Assembly (NCBI GenBank): GCA_964016885.1
Contig: OZ024747.1
Coordinates: forward strand, 58,466,001 to 58,530,000
Source: Eledone cirrhosa
Lineage: Eukaryota
DNA length: 64,000 bases
Direction of reading: 5' to 3'
Positions 2,550-63,217 of the stretch are shown piece by piece. The translations under genes and the position numbers were made by a program. The notes below the pieces were generated by a model. The model was given only the letters and a program-made list of their open reading frames with translations, did not search any database and was not told the DNA's origin. Positions within the stretch are counted from its first letter, which is position 1. Each line of letters starts with the position of its first letter.

Positions 2550-3507
2550 CAGGCCCTAACGGGTCTTTCCGTATCCGCCATTCCTTTACCAGACCATCCA
2601 CCCAGGTTGTTCCTTTTGTATTCTTCCGGTGTTTTTTTTTTTGCGGGTCTTTATATATTGGACAAACGGGTCGCCGTACAGCGGAACGTTTTGCCGAATA
2701 TTTGAGAGACATACGACTCGGTTTGGATACTCCTGTCGCCCGTCATTTCTGTTCTCCTGGTTATTCTTCCCTACATGTTTCAGTCCTGAGTGACCTTTAC
2801 ATCATGGATCACAGGGCTCGCGCACCAGGACTGAACAAAGTCTGATTCACCGCCTTGGGTCCTATTCCCTTCTTGGACTCAACTCACCTCCCCAATTTCT
2901 CTAATACCCCGTCCATTATCACACCCCTAGATTCCTATCGGTTTCACTTGATCAGTAATATCTCTTACAACTAATACATGCCGACTATATATGCTCAACC
3001 CACTTTTCTCTTTACTGCTCTATATACACACATACACCCCCTTATATTAACATACTTTTGCTCATAGCTTCGTACTTACATGGACACACACTCTTTTACT
3101 CACATGTACACACACATTTCTTCTTAGCTTCATACGGACGTATAATAACACAGACACACACACATGCATCCGCACGTGCACAAGTATAGCTCTTTTTACA
3201 AATCATTTTTTTTTTCCATTTCAGGTAGACGCGCTCTATCATCCACTTTTCTAAAAAAAATAAATCATACACAAAAGCCCAGCACCAACAGTTTTGCAAG
3301 AGATGTCAACATGAATGGACCTGTTATTTTTATCTAAAGACAATTTTTCCATTTCCTACCCACCCCTCTCCTCAATCTATCTTATTTCTCATTCTTTCTT
3401 CTGGTGAAGGACTAGCGTCCGAAACGTTAAGACCCTATATCAAGCGTTAACCTAATATATTCCTTCGATGTACTGTACCGATTACCTTGTTATTTCTGTT
3501 TAACTTT

Positions 3508-3510
<3 letters not shown>
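2549..3510 (+). mobile_element. 5'-truncated copy of the same Neptune-type PLE (EN C-terminus + 3' UTR)
   Basis: Colinear with 9741-10710 (TGPNGSFRIRHSF...GSLYIGQTGRR...PVARHF); HHR 3397-3432; (TA)n on both sides. Confidence 0.92.
3397..3432 (+). ncRNA. Minimal type-I hammerhead motif with variant core CUGGUGA
   Basis: TCTT-CTGGTGA-A-GGAC(TAGC)GTCC-GAAA-CG-TT-AAGA: stem I TCTT/AAGA, stem II GGAC/GTCC, palindromic stem III ACGT. Confidence 0.75.
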
Positions 3511-4580: not shown

Positions 4581-4760
4581 TTGGCAGTATCGATAGAGTG
4601 ACGGACGCCATGCTTTGACGCATAGAGTTACGGCCCTTGCCATTCTGATTTCAAATCCCGTCGATGTTAACTTTGCCTTTCATCCTTACGGGGTCGATAA
4701 AATAAAGTACCAGTAATACACTGGGTTATTGCTGGCCTTGTGACAGAAGTAGAAACAATT
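4581..4760 (+). mobile_element. Nin-core SINE
   Basis: Colinear with 47784-47964. Confidence 0.88.
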
Positions 4761-5761: not shown

Positions 5762-5763
<2 letters not shown>

Positions 5764-5942
5764 CACGTATAGTGTAGAACTGGCTTCTACCGGACTATAA
5801 CTGTTTCATCCCATAGAAATCTTCATTGAATGAAACAGTTCTAATCTTGGAGAAAACACTTTTATATTAAACGTGATTTCTACAGTCTATTAAACTACTG
5901 AGTACATTACTTACTGTGATTACCTCCAATTCCACCCGACAC
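5762..5942. mobile_element. Family A fold-back HHR element, degenerate copy
   Basis: aactgtttcat...atgaaacagtt inverted core; tail ctgagtacattacttactgtgattacctccaattccacccga matches 21138-21180. Confidence 0.7.
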
Positions 5943-8339: not shown

Positions 8340-8695
8340 GAATGTACGAAGTAGTGGTAAATATTAGTGTTCATACATATTTCAATGACGAAAGTGACCA
8401 CGCGAATCCATGCAGCCAGTGCCATGACGTCATAAATCAGCTTCCTTACATGATAAGGTTACGAACCCAATCCAATCAAAACTAAAAAGGCAATTGGAAT
8501 GGACAAAGATGATGTTTTTGAAGCCTTTGCCCCGAGAACGTAACTTTACTATGTAATGAAGCTGTCTGATGAGATCATGGCACTGCTTGCTTGGAATGGT
8601 GTAGCCCCTGTCGTCATTGAAATATGTATCACAGCATTGTCAATAAAGTACTTTATCATTTGCAACTACGTTGTATTTTCTTATTCGAAATATAC
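8340..8695. mobile_element. Old fold-back (head-to-head) HHR element, family C
   Basis: Reverse complement of 8372-8463 aligns to 8549-8630 (cgtaac.tta...gaagctg...tcatggcactg...tcgtcattgaaatatgtat) with many substitutions; left HHR core decayed. Confidence 0.75.
8561..8635 (+). ncRNA. Type-I hammerhead ribozyme motif
   Basis: GCTGT-CTGATGA-[long imperfect stem II]-GAAA-TATGTA-TC-ACAGC: 5-bp stem I GCTGT/ACAGC, near-palindromic stem III, AUC cleavage triplet. Confidence 0.78.
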
Positions 8696-9494
8696 TCCGT
8701 TATTCCTATGTGGAAAAACTACTTAGAGAGCTTGATTTGAATTGCATCAATGATTACCCTCGCCCTGTTGGTCGACAATCCCCCCACATCCACGATACAA
8801 AGTATGCTCTTAGACTCTTCAACTCTTTCTCCTTCCCTCCAGGTCCCTCCCGCCTTCTCTTTACCCTGGACATCACCTCTCTCTATACCGTCATCCCTCA
8901 TGATGACGGCCTCCGCGCCCTCCAACATATTTATATTTACGCCCTACCCCTTACCCCAGCACTACCACCCTTCTCCGTCTGGTTGAGCTTGTTCTCACCC
9001 TCAATGGATGTTCTTTTTCGGGTGAATTTTATCAACAGGTCTCTGGGGTAGCGATGGGAACCAGAATGGGGCCAATCTATGCCAATTTGTTTTTTGGCTA
9101 TATCGACGACTGTATCGGCGCCACCTCTTTATTAAGATTACAGCTCGACTGTTTTCTTTCTTTTGTCTAATCTTTCCATCCTGCTCTCAATTTCACCGCC
9201 TCCGTCTCAGATTCTTCTGTCGCTTTTCTAGATATTTCTCTATCTATTAATCACTCTCACAACACTCTCTCTACTTCCATCTTCATTAAACCATACCTAT
9301 ACCCAATTCCTCTGTCTTCGTCGACTTTGTAGCCAGGACGACGATTTCGAAACACATTCCCTTCGCATGGCTTCCTACTTCATCCAGCGTGGATACCCCC
9401 CCCCCCCCTCCCCTGATCCAAGCTGCTCTCACTCACCCCCCTTGAAACAGACCGCACTACAGCCCTCTCACCTCATCCCGTCCTCCCAACACCC

Positions 9495-10088
9495 TTGTTC
9501 CTTTCCCTCTCACCTACCACCCCATCACCCTACCACTCCGGCGACATATCCTCCGTTCCTTCCGTATCCTCTCGCTTTTTTCCAAACCCACCCATTACTG
9601 CTTTTAAGCGCGCCCGCAACCTCCGTGACCTCCTGGTTCGCAGTTCCTTTCCGTCCTCTGCCACGACTCAACCCGGCTCTCGTCCTTGTTCCCGTTCCCG
9701 CTGCAAAACATGTCCCTTTATTTCCACCCTCACCACTCTTACAGGCCCTAACGGTTCTTTCCGTATCCGCCATTCCTTCACCTGCACATCCACCCATGTT
9801 GTCTATGCCCTCCGGTGTTCCCTTTGCGGGTCTTTATATATCGGACAAACGGGACGCCGTTTGATGGACCATTTTGCCGAACATTTGAGTGACATACGAC
9901 GCGGTTTGGATACTCCTGTCGCCCGTCATTTCTGTTGTCCTGGTCATTCTTCCCTACATGTTTCAGTCCTGAGTGTCATTTTACATCATGGATCACAGGG
10001 CTCGCGCACCAGGACTGAACAAAGTCTGATTTACTGCCTTGGGTCCTATTCCCCTGTTGGACTCAACTCACATCCCCAATTACTCTAA
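9495..10088 (+). pseudogene. GIY-YIG endonuclease domain of the Neptune-type PLE (fragment of a disrupted single ORF)
   Basis: 197-aa ORF with VVY-x-L-x-C-x2-C-x3-YIGQT, EH, ARHF and terminal GLN motifs typical of PLE endonucleases; upstream RT frame is broken. Confidence 0.9.
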
Positions 10089-10586
10089 TACCCCATCCAT
10101 TCTCACAACCCTAGATTCCTATCGCTTTCTCTTGATCATTAGCAGCTTCACTTACAACTAATACATGCCGACTATATATGCTCACTCCACTTTTCCCTTC
10201 ACTGCTCTATATACACATGTACACAACCTTATATTAACACACTTTTGCTCATAGCTTCGTACTTACATGCACACACATTCTTTTACTAACATATATACAC
10301 ATGTCTTCTTACCTTCATACGGACGTATAATAACACACACACAGACGCGCGCGCGCGCGCGCTTACGCACGTGCACAAGTATAGCTCTTTTTAAAAATCG
10401 TTTTTTTTTCCATTTCAGGTAGACGCGCTCCATCATCCACTTTTATAAAAATAAATCATACACAAAACGCCAGTACCAACAGTTTTCCAAGAGATGTCAA
10501 CATGAATAGACCTGTTATTTTTATCTAAAGACATATTTTCCAATCCCACCCACCCATCTGCTCAATCTATCTTATTTCTTATTCTT

Positions 10587-10622
10587 TCTTCTGGTGAAAG
10601 ACTAGCGTCCGAAACGTTAAGA
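10587..10622 (+). ncRNA. Minimal hammerhead motif (Neptune PLE 3' UTR)
   Basis: TCTT-CTGGTGA-A-AGAC(TAGC)GTCC-GAAA-CGTT-AAGA; one stem II mismatch. Confidence 0.7.
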
Positions 10623-10720
10623 CCCTCTTCGTGCTATATCAATCGTTAACCTAATATATCCCTTCCATATACTGTACCGATTGTGTAGTTATTTCTGTTT
10701 ACCTTTTACATACATATATA

Positions 10721-10880: not shown

Positions 10881-11050
10881 AATTCTACAGAAGAACTCGA
10901 ACTGTTTTATTCGTATGAAATCACCAAGACATCCTTGATGATTTCATACGAATGAAACAGTTATAGTCCTGTAGAAGTAATTTTTATGTAAATAATGAAG
11001 ATAGTTAACTGTGGCTATCCACCTACCCCTACAGAATTTGGGGATCTACA
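10881..11050. mobile_element. Family A fold-back HHR element, diverged copy
   Basis: Imperfect palindrome 10883-10976 with TTGATGA-TTTCATACGAAT-GAAA-CAG(TTATAGTC)CTG-TA-GAAG on + and a decayed mirror on -. Confidence 0.75.
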
Positions 11051-14890: not shown

Positions 14891-15417
14891 GTATGAACAT
14901 AAATGAATAATAATGTCCATACATATATATGCGTGTGTGTGTATGTGAGTGTTTGTGTGTATGTATGTGTATGAGTGTGATTGTGTCTGCTTGTATATGC
15001 ATGTATATGAATATGTGTATGCATATCACATGTATGTATATATGTGTATATGTATGTGTATATATATATGTGTGTATGTATGTATGTATGTATGTATGTA
15101 TATATATATATATATTGTGTGTGTGTGTATATGTATATATATATATATATATATATAAGTATGTACACGTAGACACTACGGCTTAATACGGGATGTTTGT
15201 TTACAAACACACCGAGCATTATAATAAATGTTAGGTGAATCCATACGTACATATATATATGTGTGCATGTATGTATATATATATATACATATATACTACT
15301 GTACGTTTGTCTGTATACATATATGTATGTACGTGAACATACTTATATTTAAGTAACAGCCGTACTAAGAGTGGGAAATGAAATTTCGTTTCATTTTTTC
15401 CGTTTATATATTTATAT

Positions 15418-15630
15418 AACGAAAGAATTGTGGTAAGGAACCAGGTGGACCATAACGCACTAGAGTACTCAATACTTAGGGTAGTAGAGTGGGTAATAGG
15501 AAAAATGATGGCGCCGACAGCAGAGCGGAAGCCGTTTCGACGGCTATTTCTGGACTAAATTAGAATTCAAATTTAGTCAAGAAATAGCCGTCGAAACGGC
15601 TTGAGCTCTGCCGTCGGGGTCATACTTTTT

Positions 15631-15634
<4 letters not shown>
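15418..15634. mobile_element. Fold-back mini-element family B (3' half of a hammerhead on each arm)
   Basis: Arms ~15496-15562 / 15569-15634 centred on GAATTC; the right arm reads GAAA-CGGC(TTGAGCTCT)GCCG-TC-GGGGTC and the left arm is a diverged mirror; flanked by TA repeats. Confidence 0.8.
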
Positions 15635-15668
<34 letters not shown>

Positions 15669-17229: not shown

Positions 17230-17578
17230 TACACACAGACACAGACACACAGGCACAAAACGTTTTTTTTTTCCATTTCAAGTAGAGGCGCTCCATCATT
17301 CAGTTTTCTAAAAATATATATCATACACAAAACGCCAACATCAACGGTTTTGCAAGAGATGGTAACATGAATGGACCTATTGTCTTTCTCTAAAAAAAAT
17401 GTTTACAATTACACCTCATCCATCCCTTCAGTCTATCTAATTTCTCATTCTTTCCTCTGGTGAAGGACTAGCGTCCGAAACGTTAAGAGCCTCTTCATGC
17501 TATTTCAAGCATTAACCTAATATATTCCTTCTGTATACTGTACCGATTGTGCTGTTATTTCTGTTTACCTTTTACACA
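17230..17578 (+). mobile_element. 3' UTR-only copy of the Neptune-type PLE
   Basis: Matches 3200-3510 and 10400-10710 (ttccatttca.gtaga.gcgctc...ggactagcgtccgaaacgttaag...ctgtttacctttaca), followed by (TA)n. Confidence 0.88.
17453..17488 (+). ncRNA. Minimal hammerhead motif (Neptune PLE 3' UTR)
   Basis: TCCT-CTGGTGA-A-GGAC(TAGC)GTCC-GAAA-CGTT-AAGA. Confidence 0.7.
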
Positions 17579-19528: not shown

Positions 19529-19694
19529 AACAGAGATGGTGTGGTAAGATACCAGGTGGGCCATAACACACCAGAGTACTTGATACTCGGGGTAGTAGAG
19601 TGGGTAATATGAAGTGAATTAGGACCCCGACGGCTGAGCTCTGGCCGTTTCAACAGCTCGATCCGAACTGAATAGCCGTCGGTGTCCTGATTCT

Positions 19695-19700
<6 letters not shown>
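19529..19700. mobile_element. Family B element, related subfamily
   Basis: gtggtaagataccaggtgggccataacacaccagagtac...gaccccgacggc matches 38163-38255; partial inverted arm to 19700. Confidence 0.75.
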
Positions 19701-20943: not shown

Positions 20944-20988
<45 letters not shown>

Positions 20989-21001
20989 TTAATATAGAAG
21001 A

Positions 21002-21050
21002 GATTCTACAGGACTAGAACTGTTTCATTCATTAGAAATCATCAGGAATC
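21002..21050 (-). ncRNA. Mirror-image complete type-I hammerhead
   Basis: Exact reverse complement of 21054-21102. Confidence 0.85.
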
Positions 21051-21053
21051 AGG

Positions 21054-21102
21054 GATTCCTGATGATTTCTAATGAATGAAACAGTTCTAGTCCTGTAGAA
21101 TC
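21054..21102 (+). ncRNA. Complete type-I hammerhead motif
   Basis: GATTC-CTGATGA-TTTC(TAAT)GAAT-GAAA-CAG(TTCTAGTC)CTG-TA-GAATC; predicted cleavage after GUA at 21097; U.U mismatch at base of stem II. Confidence 0.85.
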
Positions 21103-21185
21103 TCTTCTATATTAAAACTGTTATACTCTGCTATGTATTGAGTACCTTACTTACTGTGGTTACCTCCGATTCAACCCGGAATAAC

Positions 21186-21258
<73 letters not shown>

Positions 21259-21269
21259 TCACATATATT

Positions 21270-21700
21270 TTTATTGTTTGACCCGAATTACTAGGTCGAT
21301 TTTTTTGCCTGTGCGGATGATTGGTTTAACCACCTTCTCAGTGTGTTTGGCCTTTAACGTATGTTATAGCTCTGATTCATATGAATCATCGAGCGCTTGC
21401 CACACATCTCGGAATTTGTTTTTCGTTAATTCCTGAGCTGAAATACGTTTCTCGCTAATTTATATTTATATATATATACATATATATATATAATTTCAGT
21501 GAGGTCGAATTTGGTAGTGGTCGAAAACAAAGCGAAACGCAATTTCCGAGTTATGCGGCAAGCGCTCCATGGACTAAAAAAAGACCAGAGCAATAAACAT
21601 AGGTTATAGAGGCCAAACAAACTGAGAATGGCGGTCAAGAAGCCATCAGTCACCTAAGCCAAAAAAAACAAAGCAAGCTAAACAGGTCAAACAAAATAAT
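21270..21700. repeat. Inverted pair of an unclassified ~190-bp repeat around a short (TA)n; third copy at 5543-5700
   Basis: ttctcagt.tgtttggcct...gctctg...gagcgcttgcc..cat..ctcggaa on + (21325-21415) and on - (21540-21628). Confidence 0.65.
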
Positions 21701-22115
21701 ATTTACCTGGACCTCCGCAATTGATGGTATAATCCAGTAAAGGATTTCTGCGACACCTAAATCAATTATACTGCCTGCTTCCATATTAAACTTTTGGTTT
21801 AATGATCGATCAAGGCTGCCACTTCGTCTACAGTTATTTTGTTCTCAGCCATATATATAAATATATATAAATGTAACCTGAGTTTTTCGAATATCAATAA
21901 TAACATTCGATTCGTTTGCAATTATGCAAACAAGGTGCAATGTTATAGCCATGTCAATAGAATGACTCTTCATTCTTGATTCTATGTTGGCATGCGAACA
22001 GAACTGCAGATACTAATGTTTCTGGGTATGACCCTTCATCAGTACAGCTCACTGTTCACCTGCCAAACTGTCAGAGCTAGTGAAAATATATGCTATTTTC
22101 AAAAATACACAGTGA

Positions 22116-22221
22116 CTGATCGGCCTGATTTGCATATTAGCAGGCTGGCTGACCAGTCAGACTGCATATTAGCAGATCCACTGATCAGCCAGATTTGTAT
22201 ATCAGCAAATTGACCAATCAG
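22116..22221 (+). repeat. ~32-bp minisatellite, three full units plus a partial
   Basis: Units ctgatcggcctgatttgcatattagcag / ctgaccagtcagactgcatattagcag / ctgatcagccagatttgtatatcagca. Confidence 0.75.
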
Positions 22222-22333
22222 TTTCCTGTATGTGAGCGATAAATGTCCGGCTTTGCCAGATTCAAATAAAAAGAAAATTTCGCCCTACATGGCTGAATAC
22301 AATAAATGTAATCTGAGTTTTTCGAATATTAAT

Positions 22334-22518
22334 AATTGTTTCTACTTTTGGCACAAGGCCAGCAAAAACCCAGTGCATTACTGGTACTTTATTTTATCGA
22401 CCCCGTAAGGATGAAAGCCAAAGTTAACCTCGGCGGGATTTGAACTCAGAATGGAAAGGGGCGTAACTCTATGTATCAAAGCATGGCGGCCGACCCTCTA
22501 CTGATACTGCAAATCCAC
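22334..22518 (-). mobile_element. Nin-core SINE inserted in a local duplication
   Basis: Family match; flanks 22306-22335 + 22519-22582 duplicate 21872-21964. Confidence 0.88.
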
Positions 22519-22621
22519 AACATTTGATTCGTTTGCAATTATACAAACAGAGCCTCAATGTTATAGCCATGTCGTTAGAATGTATAGCGTCCGACCTCCT
22601 ACCGATACTGCCAATCCACAA

Positions 22622-22830
22622 TGTTTCTGATTTAGGTACAAGAACAACAACCTTTGGGGAAGGTAAAGTCGATTAAATGACCCCAATGCTAAACCGGTAC
22701 TTTATTTCATCGACCACCACATAAGGATGAAAGGAAAATTTAACCTTGACAGGATTTGAATTCAGAACGTAAAGAGCCGTAACACTATGTCGAGAAGCAT
22801 GGCGTCCGACATGCTACGAATACTGCCAAT
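22622..22830 (-). mobile_element. Older, longer Nin-core SINE subfamily
   Basis: Same head and core with an extra ggggaaggtaaagtcgattaaat segment. Confidence 0.8.
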
Positions 22831-23070
22831 GTAGTTGGTGTTTACAACAATAATAAATAGAATGTTGCAGAACATTAAATAAGTGTGGCGAATGAAAATA
22901 AAAAAAATAAAAAAATATATCTTCCCCATCAACCCGCCACCTTTTAATTCCATGGTTAAATGAAGTATTGCATATTATTAAGCGAAGGTGTGGAACAAGC
23001 CATCGAAAAGATGCATATGACAAAACACAACATACAGACGAATATATATATATATATGCATCAGAATGCA

Positions 23071-23166
23071 GGTGGTAAAAACCAGTTAGACCATTACTCA
23101 CCAGAGTACACGGTACGTGGGGTCTAGCTGTTGAAACGGCAAGAGTATAGCAGCCGGGGTCCCGAA

Positions 23167-23172
<6 letters not shown>
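23071..23172. mobile_element. Family B fragment pair
   Basis: ggtggtaaaaaccag...ccagagtac (terminus, minus) joined to gctgttgaaacggc...ggggtccc (plus). Confidence 0.6.
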
Positions 23173-23203
<31 letters not shown>

Positions 23204-23206
<3 letters not shown>

Positions 23207-23912
23207 TATTTGTGGTTTGGCGGGAAGTTCTTCTCTAGGATATTAAAGAATTTTTTAGGTATATTATCCTTAATTTGTAAATTAAATGGAGCATTATACC
23301 AAGTAACTCGTCTATTACGGTTTCGATGTTGTTTATTGTTTTTATAGGATGTATCCTGATGTTTATTAAGATAATTATTGTTAATGATTTCACCACACAC
23401 GTTTTGAGTTAGATTTATTGATTTAGGTGTTTCAGCTTGTTTATTAGGAGTTTTATTATTAACATTTATTAGAGTTGTAGGATGAGTAGTTTTTTGAGAG
23501 TTACTATATTGTATATTAGAAGAGTTAGAGAAATTTGGTTTTATGTTGGTGTTTTGGGGTATAGTGTGAGTGGCATTTAGGTGTGTATGTTTCATTTGGT
23601 GTTTGTTGATAATATTAGGTTGTGTGTTTGTAGTGTTATTGGTACAAGGTATATATATTAATTTATTTTTGTGGCCACTTCTAGCTAGAGCTTCGTTATA
23701 AAAGGTCGCATTTTTATCAAATACATCCTGGTTAGACGAAAGGTTAGAAATTCTAAGTGATATATTATATGAAAGGTTTTTAAGGATAGATTTAGGGTGA
23801 TTAGATTGTGAGTGTATGTAGTGTAAATGTTGGTTAGGTTTATGGTAAGGTTGGTAAATACCCGTAGATAAGTCTAATGTTATATCTAGGAAATTAACTA
23901 CTTTACTTGTGT
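23204..23912 (-). mobile_element. Penelope-like element internal fragment (RT C-terminus/thumb + linker), different lineage from the Neptune copy
   Basis: Open minus frame upstream of and including ORF 23170-23595: KVVNFLDITLDLSTGIYQPYHKPN..YIHSQSNHPKSILKNL...RISNLSS...FYNEALARSG, an N/T-rich tract, then RRVTWYNAPFNLQIKDNIPKKFFNILEKNFPPNHKY. Confidence 0.85.
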
Positions 23913-23929
23913 TATATACCTTTTACTGA

Positions 23930-38150: not shown

Positions 38151-38152
<2 letters not shown>

Positions 38153-38343
38153 CGAAGCAAATGTGGTAAGGAACCAGATCGACCATAACGCACCAAAGTA
38201 CTCAATACTTAGGGTAGTAGAGTGGGTAATAGGAACAAGTATGACCCCGACGGCAGAGCTCAAGCCGTTTCTACGGCTATTTCTGGACGAAATAGCCGTC
38301 GAAACGGCTTGAGCTCTGCCGTCGTGGTCATACTTGTTCCTAT
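38151..38343. mobile_element. Fold-back mini-element family B
   Basis: Arms 38229-38283 / 38289-38343, spacer TGGAC; homologous to 15418-15634; (TA)n on both sides. Confidence 0.82.
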
Positions 38344-43320: not shown

Positions 43321-43362
<42 letters not shown>

Positions 43363-43367
<5 letters not shown>

Positions 43368-43835
43368 ATACTTTGGGAGGGTCATGTTGCCAATAAGAAA
43401 CACACGCACCAGTTGCTTTCACTTCAATTTATTATATATTTATAAATTTATAAATTTACAAATCTACAAACTTATAAATTTCTGGTTGGTTGGTTGGTTC
43501 CACAACCAGATAGTCATAGTCCTTTCGTCACACACTCTGTGACCTCTTCAGTGACTGGGGATTCCTTTCTTTGTTTCTGTGCCTTTCCTTTCTTCTATCC
43601 TACGCCATTTTGTTTCTGTGTGTGTGTTGTGTGCTCAGTTTGCGCATACGCCACATCCGGGTGTCTGTGTGTGTTTGTGTTCATTTATCTATTTGTTTAT
43701 TTATTTATTGTTGGTTGGTTGTTAGTTCTATGTGTGTGTGTGTTTTCATTTTGTCCTTAATTGTAAGTTGTGATGTTGCTGTTCCACTCATATTTTCTAT
43801 TTAATTTTGGTTGTAATTCTTTTATGCTTACTGCA
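43363..43835 (-). mobile_element. PLE 3' end (family D): last codons, 3' UTR and intact hammerhead
   Basis: Minus strand begins with PLE-like C-terminal codons (..PKLNRKYEW), then an A/C-rich UTR, HHR 43512-43556 and terminus gaccctcccaaagtataacaa joined to (TA)n. Confidence 0.75.
43512..43556 (-). ncRNA. Intact minimal type-I hammerhead
   Basis: AGTCA-CTGAAGA-G-GTCACA(GAGTG)TGTGAC-GAAA-GGAC-TA-TGACT: 5-bp stem I, 6-bp stem II, canonical core. Confidence 0.88.
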
Positions 43836-43931: not shown

Positions 43932-44150
43932 TGTGAATATAGACATAGAATATTCGAAAATATTCTGTATGTTTATAATAAACATTTTGAAGACCTAATC
44001 GCTATAGAATAGAATACGTCACGTATTACAATTAGATTCGCGATTAGGTCTTCAAAATGTTTATTATAAACATACAGAATATTTTCGAATATTCTATGTC
44101 TATATTCACATATATATCGCTATTTCAGAGCATTTATTCAAATTTCTAAT
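43932..44150. repeat. Perfect 71-bp inverted repeat with 37-nt spacer inside a (TA)n satellite
   Basis: 43932-44002 is the exact reverse complement of 44040-44110; unique tail to ~44150. Confidence 0.85.
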
Positions 44151-50259: not shown

Positions 50260-50317
50260 GAATATATATATACAGTATGTGTGTATATATATATATGAAT
50301 ATATATATATATACAGT

Positions 50318-50852
50318 AACACACTCACTGTTTGGTTGGTTTTCGCTTTTCGCTTCTGTGTCCTTTATATCGGTAATCTAATTTATTCGGACCTCAATGT
50401 TGCCATTGACTGACCGGCGGTCAAAAATAATACAGATACAATATAGACACAAACACATATATATAGTTTATCAGAGTTCTTTCGTTGCACATCTGCAACA
50501 TCGTCAGTGGTGCTATTTTTTCCTCCCGTTGCATTGTATGTCTACGCCATTCTTATTTAGTCTAAATAAAAATGGCGTAGACATACAATGCAACGGGAGG
50601 AAACAATAGCACCACTGACGATGTTGCAGATGTGCAACGAAAGAACTCTGATAAACTATATATATGTGTTTGTGTCTATATTGTATCTGTATTATTTTTG
50701 ACCGCCGGTCAGTCAATGGCAACATTGAGGACCGAATAAATTAGATTACCGATATAAAAGACACAGAAGCGAAAAGCGAAAACAACCAAACAGTGAGTGT
50801 GTTCTGTTATTAATTCTGGCAATATTACACAAATATCACCCTCCCCAAGTAT

Positions 50853-50858
<6 letters not shown>
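50318..50858. mobile_element. Long fold-back element (family D) with twin hammerheads
   Basis: ~243-bp near-perfect arms 50318-50560 / 50562-50803 with a 1-nt spacer; long arm runs on to ccctccccaagtataacaa(TA)n. Explains the duplicated 70-aa ORFs on opposite strands. Confidence 0.88.
50613..50650 (+). ncRNA. Minimal hammerhead (mirror copy at ~50472-50509 on -)
   Basis: CA-CTGACGA-T-GTTGCA(GATG)TGCAAC-GAAA-GAAC-TC-TG; stem I short. Confidence 0.75.
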
Positions 50859-54904: not shown

Positions 54905-55012
54905 TCGGGTTCAATCGAGAGTAAACACAGTTAGTAGGGTACTCAATATATTAGTACAGTGTATACAACACAATTTAATATGGAAATGGCTTCTACAGGT
55001 CTCCAAATTTCA

Positions 55013-55016
<4 letters not shown>
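54905..55016 (-). mobile_element. Family A 3' fragment
   Basis: Reverse complement gaatgaaa...cctgtagaag...tattgagtaccctactaactgtgtttactctcgattgaacccga matches 21074-21180. Confidence 0.7.
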
Positions 55017-55053
<37 letters not shown>

Positions 55054-55055
<2 letters not shown>

Positions 55056-55441
55056 TTTCTGAATTTGTTTAGCAAGATTCTTTATCTGAAAACGTGTGTT
55101 GAAACCGATATTGTTATGCTTTGTGACGGTCATGTTGCCAATAAGAAACACACGCACCAGTTGCTTTCACTCCAATTTATTGTAATTTAAATTTATAAAT
55201 TTGAGAATTTATAAATTTCCGGTTGGTTGGTTGGTTCCATAACCGGACGGTTGTTCATATATTGTCGAAGTTCTTTCGGCACACATTATGTGACCTCTTC
55301 AGTGATTGGAGATTCTTTTCTTCGTGTTGTGCCTCTCCTTTGTTCTGTCTTACGCCATCTTATAATAAATTGGAGTGAAAGCAACTGGTGCGTGTGTTTG
55401 TTATTGGCAACATGACCCCCCCCCCCCCCAAGCATTACAAT
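55054..55441. mobile_element. Family D element with inverted 3'-end duplication
   Basis: 55111-55180 is inverted relative to 55365-55440; minus-strand HHR at ~55263-55305 (CTGAAGA-G-GTCACA(TAATG)TGTGCC-GAAA-GAAC-TT); homologous to 43363-43610. Confidence 0.8.
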
Positions 55442-56333
55442 ATATATATATATATATATATGAAATACACCTGTAGATCCAAGCAGCAGCCATGTTACGC
55501 ACAGTGTCGCGCTGAGTCTCCACATAATGGTTACTAATGTATTTCAAATATTCAAAAAATTGCATGTTAATTACACTGGTATAGTCTACCGTCGCAGAAG
55601 GTCACACAAACACAACATTCCTTTTTTGAGACAACTCAAGAAGCTGATCAGATACAAAACGTTGCCATTGGTTTACATTATTTATCACCGTAGTTATATT
55701 TTTTTTTGAGATCCTCAAACTTTCATCATTTGAAGCGATTTTTAAAAAAACATAGGTAACATAATGAATGGAGGTGACACAGCATGACCTCAGTCCGTCG
55801 GCTGGAACACGTAAGAGAGTAATAGAGTTACAGAAATATTGAATGATATTTTGTTTATGCTTTTGTATTAGTTTCGAGACATTCTGATGTGAAATTGTCT
55901 GCTGAAACAACACACATAGACGTATTTTGGGATGGTTAGGCTGCCATTTAAAACAGACGCAAATAATGAGGAAATTAATCCACCCATCAGTTAGTTAATC
56001 ATCCAATCAGTTAAGTAATTGTCAAAGCTCATTCATTAATCAAAGAGTCTGTGACATTATCGATATTTTTTCTGTGTATCTCAAACACGTTATCAGTTAA
56101 TTCTGCTTCGAATTTACTCCATATTTTTTTTCTGACATTGTCTTACAGTCTGCAGATTGTGGTGTGCGCATGCGTACGTCGAACCACATGCTCATGTATG
56201 TTATCTTTATTGCTTTCTCTGCTGCTGCTGTCTTTTTCTCCCTCTCTATATCCCTCCTCTCTCTCTCTATATATATATATATATCTATATATATATTTAG
56301 AATTTCGCTTCGACCATAGCTCTATACAAATAT

Positions 56334-56777
56334 GTATTTGAATTTCGTATTTCTAAAGAAGTACGGTATGTTTACATATAAATATTTAGAAAGCCATAGC
56401 TATGAATGATACTGGCAGCTAACGCTACCAAACTGTGCTCGGTAGAAGCAAGGGGTAAAATCTTCGTTGAAATGCGCACTCAACTGGTACGCATCAGGAC
56501 GTTCTCTCACGCTGTTGCCACTGCCGAACAGGCGAAAATATATAGTCTTTCGTCTGTGTAAATGAGGTGATTAATCTCATTTGTATATGAAGCTGTATAA
56601 GTTGCCTCAACTTAATATAGAATATAATTAGCTTCGAATGCATCGACGATTGTCCCCCTAGCCCCTGCCGAGCACCGCTTGGTGGAGTTAGCTGCCAGTA
56701 TCATTCAGAGCTATGGCTTTTTAAAGGTTGACTTCTAAACATGCCGTATTTCTTTAGAAATACGAAATTCAAATACT
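56334..56777. mobile_element. MITE-like element with ~135-bp diverged inverted repeats
   Basis: gtatttgaatttcgtatttctaaagaa...gatactggcagctaac (56334-56470) is inverted at 56640-56777. Confidence 0.75.
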
Positions 56778-57525
56778 ATATTTAAAATAAGACAGTATAG
56801 ATTTGCAATACATATATCAGACAGTTAAGTTTTTAAGCATTTAGTAATATACATCATATATATTAATAAATTAATCAAAGCTGGACTGCAAGCCTAAGTA
56901 TAGTATACCAACAACCTATTGCTACATAAATTAGTTATTTTAAGATAATAAATATAGTGCAGCGGTATTAACCATCGAATCATATTGTGATATATGGATA
57001 TGTCTTGCACGACGCTTACTTGTGAACGCAGGTGCCTTAGTGGCTTGTGTGTAGGACTCAGGAACGTAAGGTCATGCGTCGTTTCCTTGAGGAAGATGCT
57101 TTTTTTACTCTGCTACTCCGGACATCAGTTGCGAACGACATGTACTGTTAATGGACTAATGGATAGATGAATTCCCTTGCTCGACCCGACTATCACCTCT
57201 TTCCTTTCCTTTTAATGGTACAAAAGTCAAACTTTGTATATTTCATAAATGATTCTGGAATCCAATGAAACCAAACAGTGTAACATGAACCTATAGTTGC
57301 ATCTGTATGCTCCAGTCATCCCACCCCTCTTCCACTCACTATTATCTAGGCACACATAAGTACATAAACCCACATTAAGAGGTGCAACATGGTTTTAATC
57401 CGGCAGCGTCTCATCATAAGGGAATAAATAATTTACCATACAAGATGGGATTTACAGCTTCGGAATACCTAAGCATAAACATGAATAATAATAAAAAAAA
57501 TGCAGCAGCAGCGCCACAGCAGCAA

Positions 57526-61823: not shown

Positions 61824-62145
61824 TATAGTGAAAAGATAACAAGGGCGATTAGTCTTTCATTACATTTATTGGTTGGTGACGCGCGTTTTGCCACTGATCA
61901 GCTCAAGGTTCGATCTGTATCAATCTTACCCGACTCTGTAATCTGCAACTCGACGGACCCCTTGAAATGCTAGTAGAAAATGAATACATGCTACATGATA
62001 AAGTCAGAAGTTCATATGTCAGTCAATAAAGTTTGTTTTGATTGGGCAATAGTTCATAGGGATGTTTTTGACTGGCCAAACGCGCGTCACCAATCAATAA
62101 ATGTAATGAAGGAGTAACCAATGTCCTTCTTATCTTTTCACTATA
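61824..62145. mobile_element. Inverted-arm element with hammerhead 3'-half relics
   Basis: 61824-61893 inverted vs 62073-62145; each arm reads AAA-CGCGCG-TC-ACCAA then AATAAA and ends cttttcactata. Confidence 0.6.
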
Positions 62146-62268: not shown

Positions 62269-62706
62269 ACTAGACTTGAAAAATGCTCAAGCTCAAAAGA
62301 ACCACAGAATGTTATAATAACCCTTCAAAAGTGTGGGACTAGAGTTGTTGCTCAAAAATATTGTAATCATTATCTATAGTACACTCTGTGGCATCCTTTT
62401 ATAAAAAAAGAGACTCATAACGAACTCAAGACGACACGATAATTATTTAAGCTAATGTTCAATAACTCATATTAGATGTTTAGTAATGATTAATACGAAA
62501 TGCACTTAAATCGAATTCTATATTATAAATTCACTTAAATAATTATCGTGTCGTCTTGAGTTCGTTATGAGTCTCTTTTTTTATAAAAGGATGCCACACT
62601 GTGTACGATTACAATATTGTTGAGCAACAACTCTAGTCGCACACTTTTGAAGGTTTATCATAACATTCTATGGCTCTTTTGAGCTTGCGCATTTTTCAGG
62701 TCTAGT
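62269..62706. mobile_element. MITE-like long inverted repeat
   Basis: Arms 62269-62451 and 62534-62706 (actagac...gtctagt), 82-nt spacer, TA-rich flanks. Confidence 0.8.
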
Positions 62707-63217
62707 TTATATTTTTTTAAGGCAACGCTTGTAATAACACTAGTTAAACGTGACATATATTAATAATAAATTATCGTTGTAATGTAATTAGATTATATAA
62801 TTGTTATTTTATAAATGATCTTATTAATATTATTGTAAGATGTATAAAAGTATTTTCAAACTTTTAAAAGTTAATATAAATTTTAAAAAATCATATATAA
62901 ATTAACAATATAACTTACCAAAACAAGAAAAATATTTTGATGATAAACGACGAAATACTGGAGGAAGATTCGAATGCGAAACGATAAATAACCGTGGAAA
63001 CAAAGTGGCGGATGCTTTTGACCAACAATTACTCTCGTTGGTTGAGTAGCCAATAAGACGATGAAATTAGCCAATAAGACGATGCATTACAAAACATGTT
63101 TGGGAGACATCACCACGGCCAGCGATACCCTTTGAATGTTTTATTCACAAGCAACGCATATATGTCAGAAGACACGCAGACATAAAACATTCTGTTGTTA
63201 GTCACTGCGTGTCTAAC

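Follow-up and report, generated by a model that had tools for sequence, protein, structure and literature searches.

The twin-hammerhead palindrome at positions 20985-21186 of the window, by which we mean the whole 64-kb stretch of DNA analysed, is a real feature with a known kind of structure from an uncharacterised family, and in all likelihood it is the stump of one insertion of a high-copy Penelope-like retroelement (PLE), in which two short copies of the 3' end lie head to head. The original prediction had offered two origins for it, and the first, repeatedly generated minimal inverted PLE insertions, fits: the layout is the one published for PLEs, there are two 3' ends, and the joints vary. 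According to the accessible text of two earlier studies (PMC8557442, PMC3846280), PLE insertions often contain an inverted 5'-truncated copy and a one-sided tail, and favour microsatellites. At the present element (A1, of what we call family A) we likewise find the traits of an EN+ PLE insertion, namely an inverted 5'-truncated copy with a one-sided tail, two defined 3' ends bounding that tail (21119 and 21184, both recovered in two raw-read runs) and an AT-rich microsatellite target. The PLE origin of family A is one that we infer; no ORF is attached to it in the window.

Anatomy of the element

A1 and its flanks are composed of the following parts:

20946..20984: (TA)n left flank, the presumed target
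20985..21050, - strand: short inverted arm, with the hammerhead (HHR) core and 22 nt past the predicted cut, to the tail-less 3' end
21051..21053, + strand: spacer AGG, unlike both upstream consensus sequences in reads
21054..21102, + strand: type-I hammerhead motif, with core 21059-65, stem II 21067-69/21074-76, GAAA 21078-81, stem III 21081-84/21093-96 and predicted cut after A21097
21103..21119, + strand: remainder of the repeated part, holding 21110-21117 (TATTAAAA)
21120..21186, + strand: one-sided 67-nt extension, equivalent of the PLE 'tail', ending 89 nt past the predicted cut
21187..21259: right flank of (TA)n, interrupted once

The palindrome set in (TA)n with a hammerhead on each strand is thus as predicted: the arms 20985-21050 and 21054-21119 are complementary at 66/66 positions around the 3-nt spacer, and each strand carries a full type-I HHR core. 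The hairpin has a predicted energy of -107.8 kcal/mol (z -20.6), a stability that 0/200 shuffles equalled. Its description as a palindrome of ~200 bp is right as to the perfection of the arms, but it is palindromic over 135 of its 202 bases, 21120-21186 being one-sided. Both flanks are (TA)n, within which no TSD is discernible.

The fold-back had further been said to coincide precisely with the 5' edge of stem I. This does not hold on the + strand, where the spacer AGG pairs with 21103-21105 and lengthens stem I to 8 bp; stem I of the - strand arm has 5 bp. AGG itself is either native to the A1 subfamily or junction filler. Judging from the letters, 21110-21117 could additionally pair with TTTTGATA upstream in other copies and so form a predicted distal stem I; this partner is absent at A1 and present in the upstream loose-end consensus of reads (pairing judged by eye). 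No ORF starts in the HHR of A1, where both ATGs reach a stop within 9 codons.

Fit to the hammerhead type and predicted folding

Each arm holds a GATTC/GAATC stem I, CUGAUGA, a 3-bp stem II, GAAA, and GUA with the predicted cut. The conserved positions C3-U4-G5-A6-N7-G8-A9, G12-A13-A14, A15.1-U16.1 and H17 are present in both arms, as are three helices with helix I open (5-8 bp, 3 bp plus U.U, and 4 bp). Stem II is closed by U.U and not by G-C, the pair G10.1-C11.1 being replaced by U.U. Stem III is made of 4 bp (A-U, C-G, A-U, G-C) with an 8-nt loop, which places A1 outside the minimal HHR class with helix III absent or a short palindrome, a type that does fit families F and D and the motif at 43551 of the window (see below). 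With at most one mismatch, the 24-nt core pattern has 7 matches in the 64-kb window against 0.35 expected, and 0/100 shuffles reached 7. The Rfam comparison suggested along with the original prediction found no hammerhead family at E ≤ 10 for the whole element or a single arm; what it did return, also for the window as a whole, were hairpin-type hits scoring below their gathering thresholds.

The claim of a full type-I ribozyme in each arm therefore stands for the core and the three helices, but the arm probably comprises, as read from its sequence, the core and proximal stem I and falls short of the whole natural ribozyme, because the family as seen in reads continues upstream of 21054. Variation in reads was examined among the variants listed: loop II positions differ in 18, 56, 31 and 71% of the reads of one RAD run (X20), whereas the two listed core positions do so in 7-8%. 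T21101G occurs in 890/2763 and 848/2867 reads of the two RAD runs; comparing totals, rather than linking the two on single reads, it goes with the upstream form whose consensus ends in GC, and it would then be a compensatory change from A-U to C-G in stem I.

A transcript of either strand had also been proposed to choose between an active HHR and a 66-bp dsRNA hairpin, as a built-in switch. A lone arm can indeed take the HHR fold (-3.7 kcal/mol against an MFE of -5.6, or -8.9 against -9.2 with AGG). In the 202-nt transcript, however, the hairpin is predicted at -119.0/-121.9 kcal/mol against -40.7/-43.3 with the HHR enforced, a penalty of 78.3 (+) and 78.6 (-) kcal/mol. In the same kind of prediction the core is paired with the upstream arm at 7/7 tested transcript lengths that contain it, because on either strand transcription reaches the antisense arm before the core, which is bound by that arm as soon as it is made, so that the HHR could fold only in a transcript starting within the spacer. 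Folding prediction thus speaks strongly against a switch, which we regard as extremely improbable; the RNA of A1, if the locus is transcribed at all, is predicted to be an inert dsRNA hairpin.

Related copies and other palindromes in the window

The window holds these further copies of family A:

10883..~11050: copy A2, decayed fold-back near the HHR 5' edge, long arm on +
5762..5940: copy A3, asymmetric fold-back, long tailed arm on +; the short arm extends 66-72 nt into the repeat
54906..55017, - strand: copy A4, solo 5'-truncated copy with tail and no inverted arm

The diverged copies at 10883 and 5762 were originally described as folded back at or near the HHR. Both are real and both are folded back, but the one at 5762 is not so at stem I: its left arm reaches CUGA and its right arm begins at the 3' strand of stem II. 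Tails homologous to that of A1 are found in the copies at 5940 and 54906, and the junctions of the family-A fold-backs differ in 3/3 cases. In the alignment of the window palindromes, the arms of one locus mostly share locus-specific bases, which implies either a single source element for both arms or later homogenisation; this sharing does not separate two primings from self-priming as the route to the second arm. We also considered arms made from different templates. One clean column (21087) groups the long arm of A2 with the short arm of A3, and the other split columns sit in poorly aligned stretches; most informative columns group the arms by locus, leaving too little for such a claim.

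More generally, the window is rich in PLE remains and in palindromes of like plan, and the layout of A1 (short inverted arm, long tailed arm, (TA)n) recurs in at least four other families. These remains and palindromes are:

15412-15635, 19529-19700 and 38152-38343: family B, a second HHR family, three fold-back insertions
50316-50857: palindrome D, 236-bp arms (230/237 columns identical), ~50-nt tail, (TA)n flanks
43340-43640 and 55050-55430: relatives of palindrome D with similar ends, the former with an intact minimal HHR (43551, - strand), the latter with a short inverted arm
43933-44150: palindrome C, 70/70-bp arms, 37-nt spacer, ~40-nt tail
62270-62757: palindrome E, 163/189 columns identical in the compared part, ~50-nt tail
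8647-10709, 2555-3510 and 17264-17575: family F, decayed PLE; ACGT palindrome in its minimal HHRs (3401, 10591 and 17457)
21900-23922, - strand: second decayed PLE, HHR-like core at 22042

In family B the end of the short arm is fixed, at one base 20 nt past the cut in 3/3 copies, the three junctions all differ, the CUGAUGA half is lost in all three copies, and the tail of 80 nt has TATTGAGTAC in common with family A. Taken together, the fold-backs of families A and B lie inside the HHR span in 6/6 cases, at different places. Palindrome D has a minimal-type HHR core in both arms (50615 on the + strand and 50507 on the - strand), folds back ~55 nt upstream of the core and ends ~155 nt (short arm) and ~209 nt past the cut, and in palindromes C and E a core-pattern scan found no HHR core. 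A fold-back upstream of the motif will accordingly always yield twin hammerheads, and a hammerhead is no prerequisite for folding back: D does so upstream of its core, C and E without one. From the predicted cut to the tailed end there are 89 nt in A1, 96/96/98 in family B, 82/91/91 in family F and 209 in D; since D ends ~155 and 209 nt past its cut, a spacing of ~90 nt is not general. On at least one side, (TA)n borders 8/8 of the palindromes listed, and it makes up 11% of the window.

Family F retains RT-like and GIY-YIG remains at 8647-10088 with the HHR downstream, the Pfam match to GIY-YIG being weak (E 0.035, under the curated cut-off). These remains are preceded by a C-X4-C-X2-C motif of the kind described as Neptune/Nematis-like in the accessible part of PMC8557442. 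Further elements bounded by inverted repeats, with arm identities of 68-86%, lie at 56328-56783, 61826-62143, 21300-21667 and 8373-8629, and from their sequences may be MITEs or old PLE palindromes. In the second decayed PLE, the frame 23170-23922 (- strand), for which no Pfam match was found, is one that we take to be RT C-terminal-like. The window also contains a dispersed SINE-like repeat of ~180 bp in more than 10 copies (e.g. 4584-4760), which together with the microsatellite content presumably recalls cephalopod genomes.

Family A in reads of the same species

Records from four of the 22 runs listed were placed on the reference 21051-21187 at 80% likeness: 11009 from contig set X1, which may be the source sample of the assembly and hence not independent; 414 from contig set X4, whose sample type is not on record and which is therefore not counted as evidence of expression; and 7243 and 7413 from the raw RAD reads X20 and X21, which carry the same species label and come from another study. 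Family A is very abundant in these data, although read depth is not taken as copy number. Two (TA)n-flanked 3' ends recur in the two RAD runs, one behind 21119 (437 and 549 reads) and the other behind 21184 (489 and 494); they match the ends of the short and the long arm of A1, respectively. On the other side, ~1,500 reads per RAD run go on upstream past the HHR edge, with continuations before 21054 whose consensus ends in TTTTTTGATACCCA (849 and 900 reads) and before 21056 whose consensus ends in GC (718 and 686 reads), the agreement within these consensus sequences being 0.49-0.64. The upstream motif of the reads has 2 matches in the 64-kb window against 1.6 expected, which is no more than chance. 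As a side observation, CAG at 21052-54, splice-acceptor-like and at the 5' end of helix I, is present in both upstream consensus sequences of X21 and in one of the two of X20.

Joints between opposite strands are few: those listed account for 225/7243 (X20) and 286/7413 (X21) reads and 27/11009 X1 contigs, and at least 12 different ones occur among the rows listed for these three sets. In 24 of the 27 contigs with a joint listed, 21056 forms one of the two sides. Among the loose ends listed, one before 21055 (451 further X21 reads) has a consensus that reads as an inverted HHR half. The junction of A1 itself is absent among the opposite-strand joints listed (12 of 31). This absence and the perfection of the arms are what one would expect of a fold-back artefact of assembly or library preparation. 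However, the arms stop at an element-specific site found in hundreds of reads of other individuals, the flanks differ, the decayed fold-backs of family A have imperfect arms, and fold-back joints occur in X1 contigs and in both raw-read runs, so an artefact is scarcely credible.

The same joints bear on whether the palindrome is itself a non-autonomous mobile unit, its read-through hairpin RNA being copied in trans by the PLE enzyme. Consistent with this, both outer ends of A1 are 3' ends of the family, its arms have locus-specific bases in common, and the joint classes 21056/21056, 21056/21059, 21056/21075 and 21056/21073 recur in 8, 6, 4 and 3 X1 contigs; yet these classes may lump different junctions, as up to 40 letters between the two sides can go unseen and the reference starts at 21051. 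The RT would moreover need to cross a 66-bp duplex, the A1 junction is not one of those listed, and the fold-backs of the window differ in their junctions throughout families A and B. The self-propagating palindromic element, the second of the origins originally offered, thus appears to us a very unlikely account of A1, given the differing family-A junctions and the variety of opposite-strand joints in reads. With the reference starting at 21051, letters between the sides possibly unseen and the listing covering 12 of 31 joints, neither exact junction sharing nor clustering is established from the reads. Joints far upstream are invisible with the 137-nt reference, and the clustering in reads is thus ascertained.

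Joints of the head-to-tail kind were also found: the two listed (21115/21116 to 21054) are present in both RAD runs and in X1 contigs, and that from 21115 to 21054, with 15-16 letters between, defines a unit of ~77 nt (72 reads with 17 starts in X20), equal to one extended HHR.

Origin of the palindrome

We therefore favour the PLE insertion stump and picture its formation as follows. The RT/GIY-YIG protein of a PLE would nick both strands of a (TA)n target; reverse transcription of uncleaved RNA would begin at two internal sites of the family, of which one accounts for the tailed end at 21186 and the other for the tail-less end at 21119; and each cDNA would break off soon, close to the HHR on its 5' side, where the two would be joined. 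The hammerheads would then ride along as passengers, kept inactive by the hairpin whenever RNA reads through the locus. Within this explanation, two primings have a modest edge as the route to both arms, and self-priming or a template switch, the former favoured in the Discussion of PMC3846280, is a less probable route; the short arm, ending at a fixed site of the family, is easier to explain as a second start. The 5' ends in families A and B might have gathered near the HHR because RT stalls at structure, because transcripts start or a splice boundary lies there, or simply because truncations are short.

Several observations sit less well with a PLE stump. No ORF-bearing parent of family A was found in the window, and no longer copy turned up in metagenome or viral scans. 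The tails of 67 nt in A1 and 80 nt in family B exceed the 30-40 nt in print, stem III is a real 4-bp helix unlike the minimal HHR of most animal PLEs, the ends of palindrome D depart from the ~90-nt spacing, the GIY-YIG match of family F is weak, opposite-strand joints are few, and the joint class 21056/21056, with its 8 contigs, could be a subset mobilised as a unit. The metagenome scan for the HHR pattern yielded 0 loci; two loci matching the tail pattern had a likeness limited to 23-26 nt and were taken as chance. The viral scan returned four contigs with one identical stretch, which we rejected as an unrelated type-III hammerhead-like motif. In these phage contigs (L003-L006, ~1978-2026) the identical motif lies just before an ORF and, like A1, has U.U closing a 3-bp stem II.

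The original prediction also suggested that the breakpoint is set by the ribozyme fold. A version of this compatible with the PLE stump is that the extended HHR acts in cis as a landmark, independently of cleavage: its 3' base would fix the tail-less RT start and its 5' base the point at which the cDNA stops or jumps, and the genome would fill with ribozyme-sized palindromes and ~77-nt head-to-tail single-HHR units (a seedbed for retrozymes), some of which, having junctions in common, may be mobile as units. From the sequences, the edges of the extended HHR may coincide with the RT start and join points of family A: the fold-backs of A and B fall within the HHR span, the tail-less end lies 2 nt beyond the predicted distal stem I, the head-to-tail unit has the size of one extended HHR, and the short ends stand 22 (A) and 20 (B) nt past the cut. 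Nevertheless, those fold-backs are at different places, palindrome D folds back well upstream of its core with its short end ~155 nt past the cut, C and E fold back without a core, many reads of each RAD run extend beyond the HHR edge, the clustering in reads is ascertained by the short reference, and the picture would look no different if a splice acceptor (CAG at 21052-54) or the start of the transcript lay there. A breakpoint set by the ribozyme fold is thus weakly supported by the sequences, and we hold the landmark model to be an unlikely but not negligible possibility.

As a PLE stump, A1 would be an ordinary product of a known retroelement class. The accessible text of PMC8557442 and PMC11167929 names as open questions the route by which PLE ends become inverted and the role of PLE hammerheads. 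In a genome with very many palindromes of 130-500 bp from several PLE families, start sites and junctions are countable, making the choice between two primings and self-priming decidable. If it is true that the edges of the HHR set the start and stop sites of RT, PLE hammerheads would have a function free of cleavage.

Comparison with known systems

The comparisons below draw on the accessible portions of the papers cited. In the literature covered, in which subscription papers are sparsely represented, we found no account of a twin-HHR palindrome mobilised as a whole, nor of a ribozyme fixing the junctions, and in PMC6962438 the hammerheads of a squid are, in the portion available, only counted. 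Retrozymes are tandem, PLE-derived and 170-400 nt in unit length (PMC7229834; bioRxiv 10.64898/2026.07.22.740005; PMC7761336). With the animal non-LTR retrozymes (PMC7229834; bioRxiv 10.64898/2026.07.22.740005), A1 has in common that it is non-coding, PLE-related and equipped with a type-I HHR, and family A includes some head-to-tail units; in contrast to their head-to-tail 170-400-nt HHR units, A1 is inverted and the tandem unit of its family measures ~77 nt. The axolotl HHR_Amex2 (PMC7229834) resembles A1 in having a 3-bp stem II closed by U.U.

Closer parallels are offered by PLE hammerheads (Cervera & de la Pena 2014, PMC4209133), which share with A1 the type-I core, the dispersed high-copy motifs and the opposite-strand twins. 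Such opposite-strand pairs, with 100-700 bp between the motifs, have been explained in Schistosoma by truncated PLEs, and in Penelope of D. virilis an intron ends at the 5' end of helix I (PMC4209133). A1 differs from these hammerheads in not being minimal, with its 4-bp stem III and 8-nt loop, and in having its two motifs just 3 nt apart. The EN+ PLE unit with an inverted pLTR (Arkhipova et al. 2013, PMC3846280; Craig et al. 2021, PMC8557442) agrees with A1 in the head-to-head inverted 3' copy, the one-sided tail, the microsatellite target, the HHR in the repeated end and the partial tandems, whereas A1 is very short, lacks an ORF and has a tail of 67 rather than 30-40 nt.

Finally, in PAc, a Poseidon element of Anolis (Frangieh et al. 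2024, PMC11167929), both strands are nicked and extended, and two internal RT starts bound the tail; the RNA used is uncleaved, and HHR cleavage is not needed. Its main start lies 111-118 nt into the ORF and its HHR cut at +26 (PMC11167929), which by our subtraction puts the start 85-92 nt past the cut, compared with 89 nt in A1, 96/96/98 nt in family B and 82/91/91 nt in family F. Unlike PAc, A1 has no ORF starting in its HHR; A1, known from DNA alone, and PAc nonetheless share two defined 3' ends past the HHR, ~90 nt from the cut to the long end and an AT-rich target.
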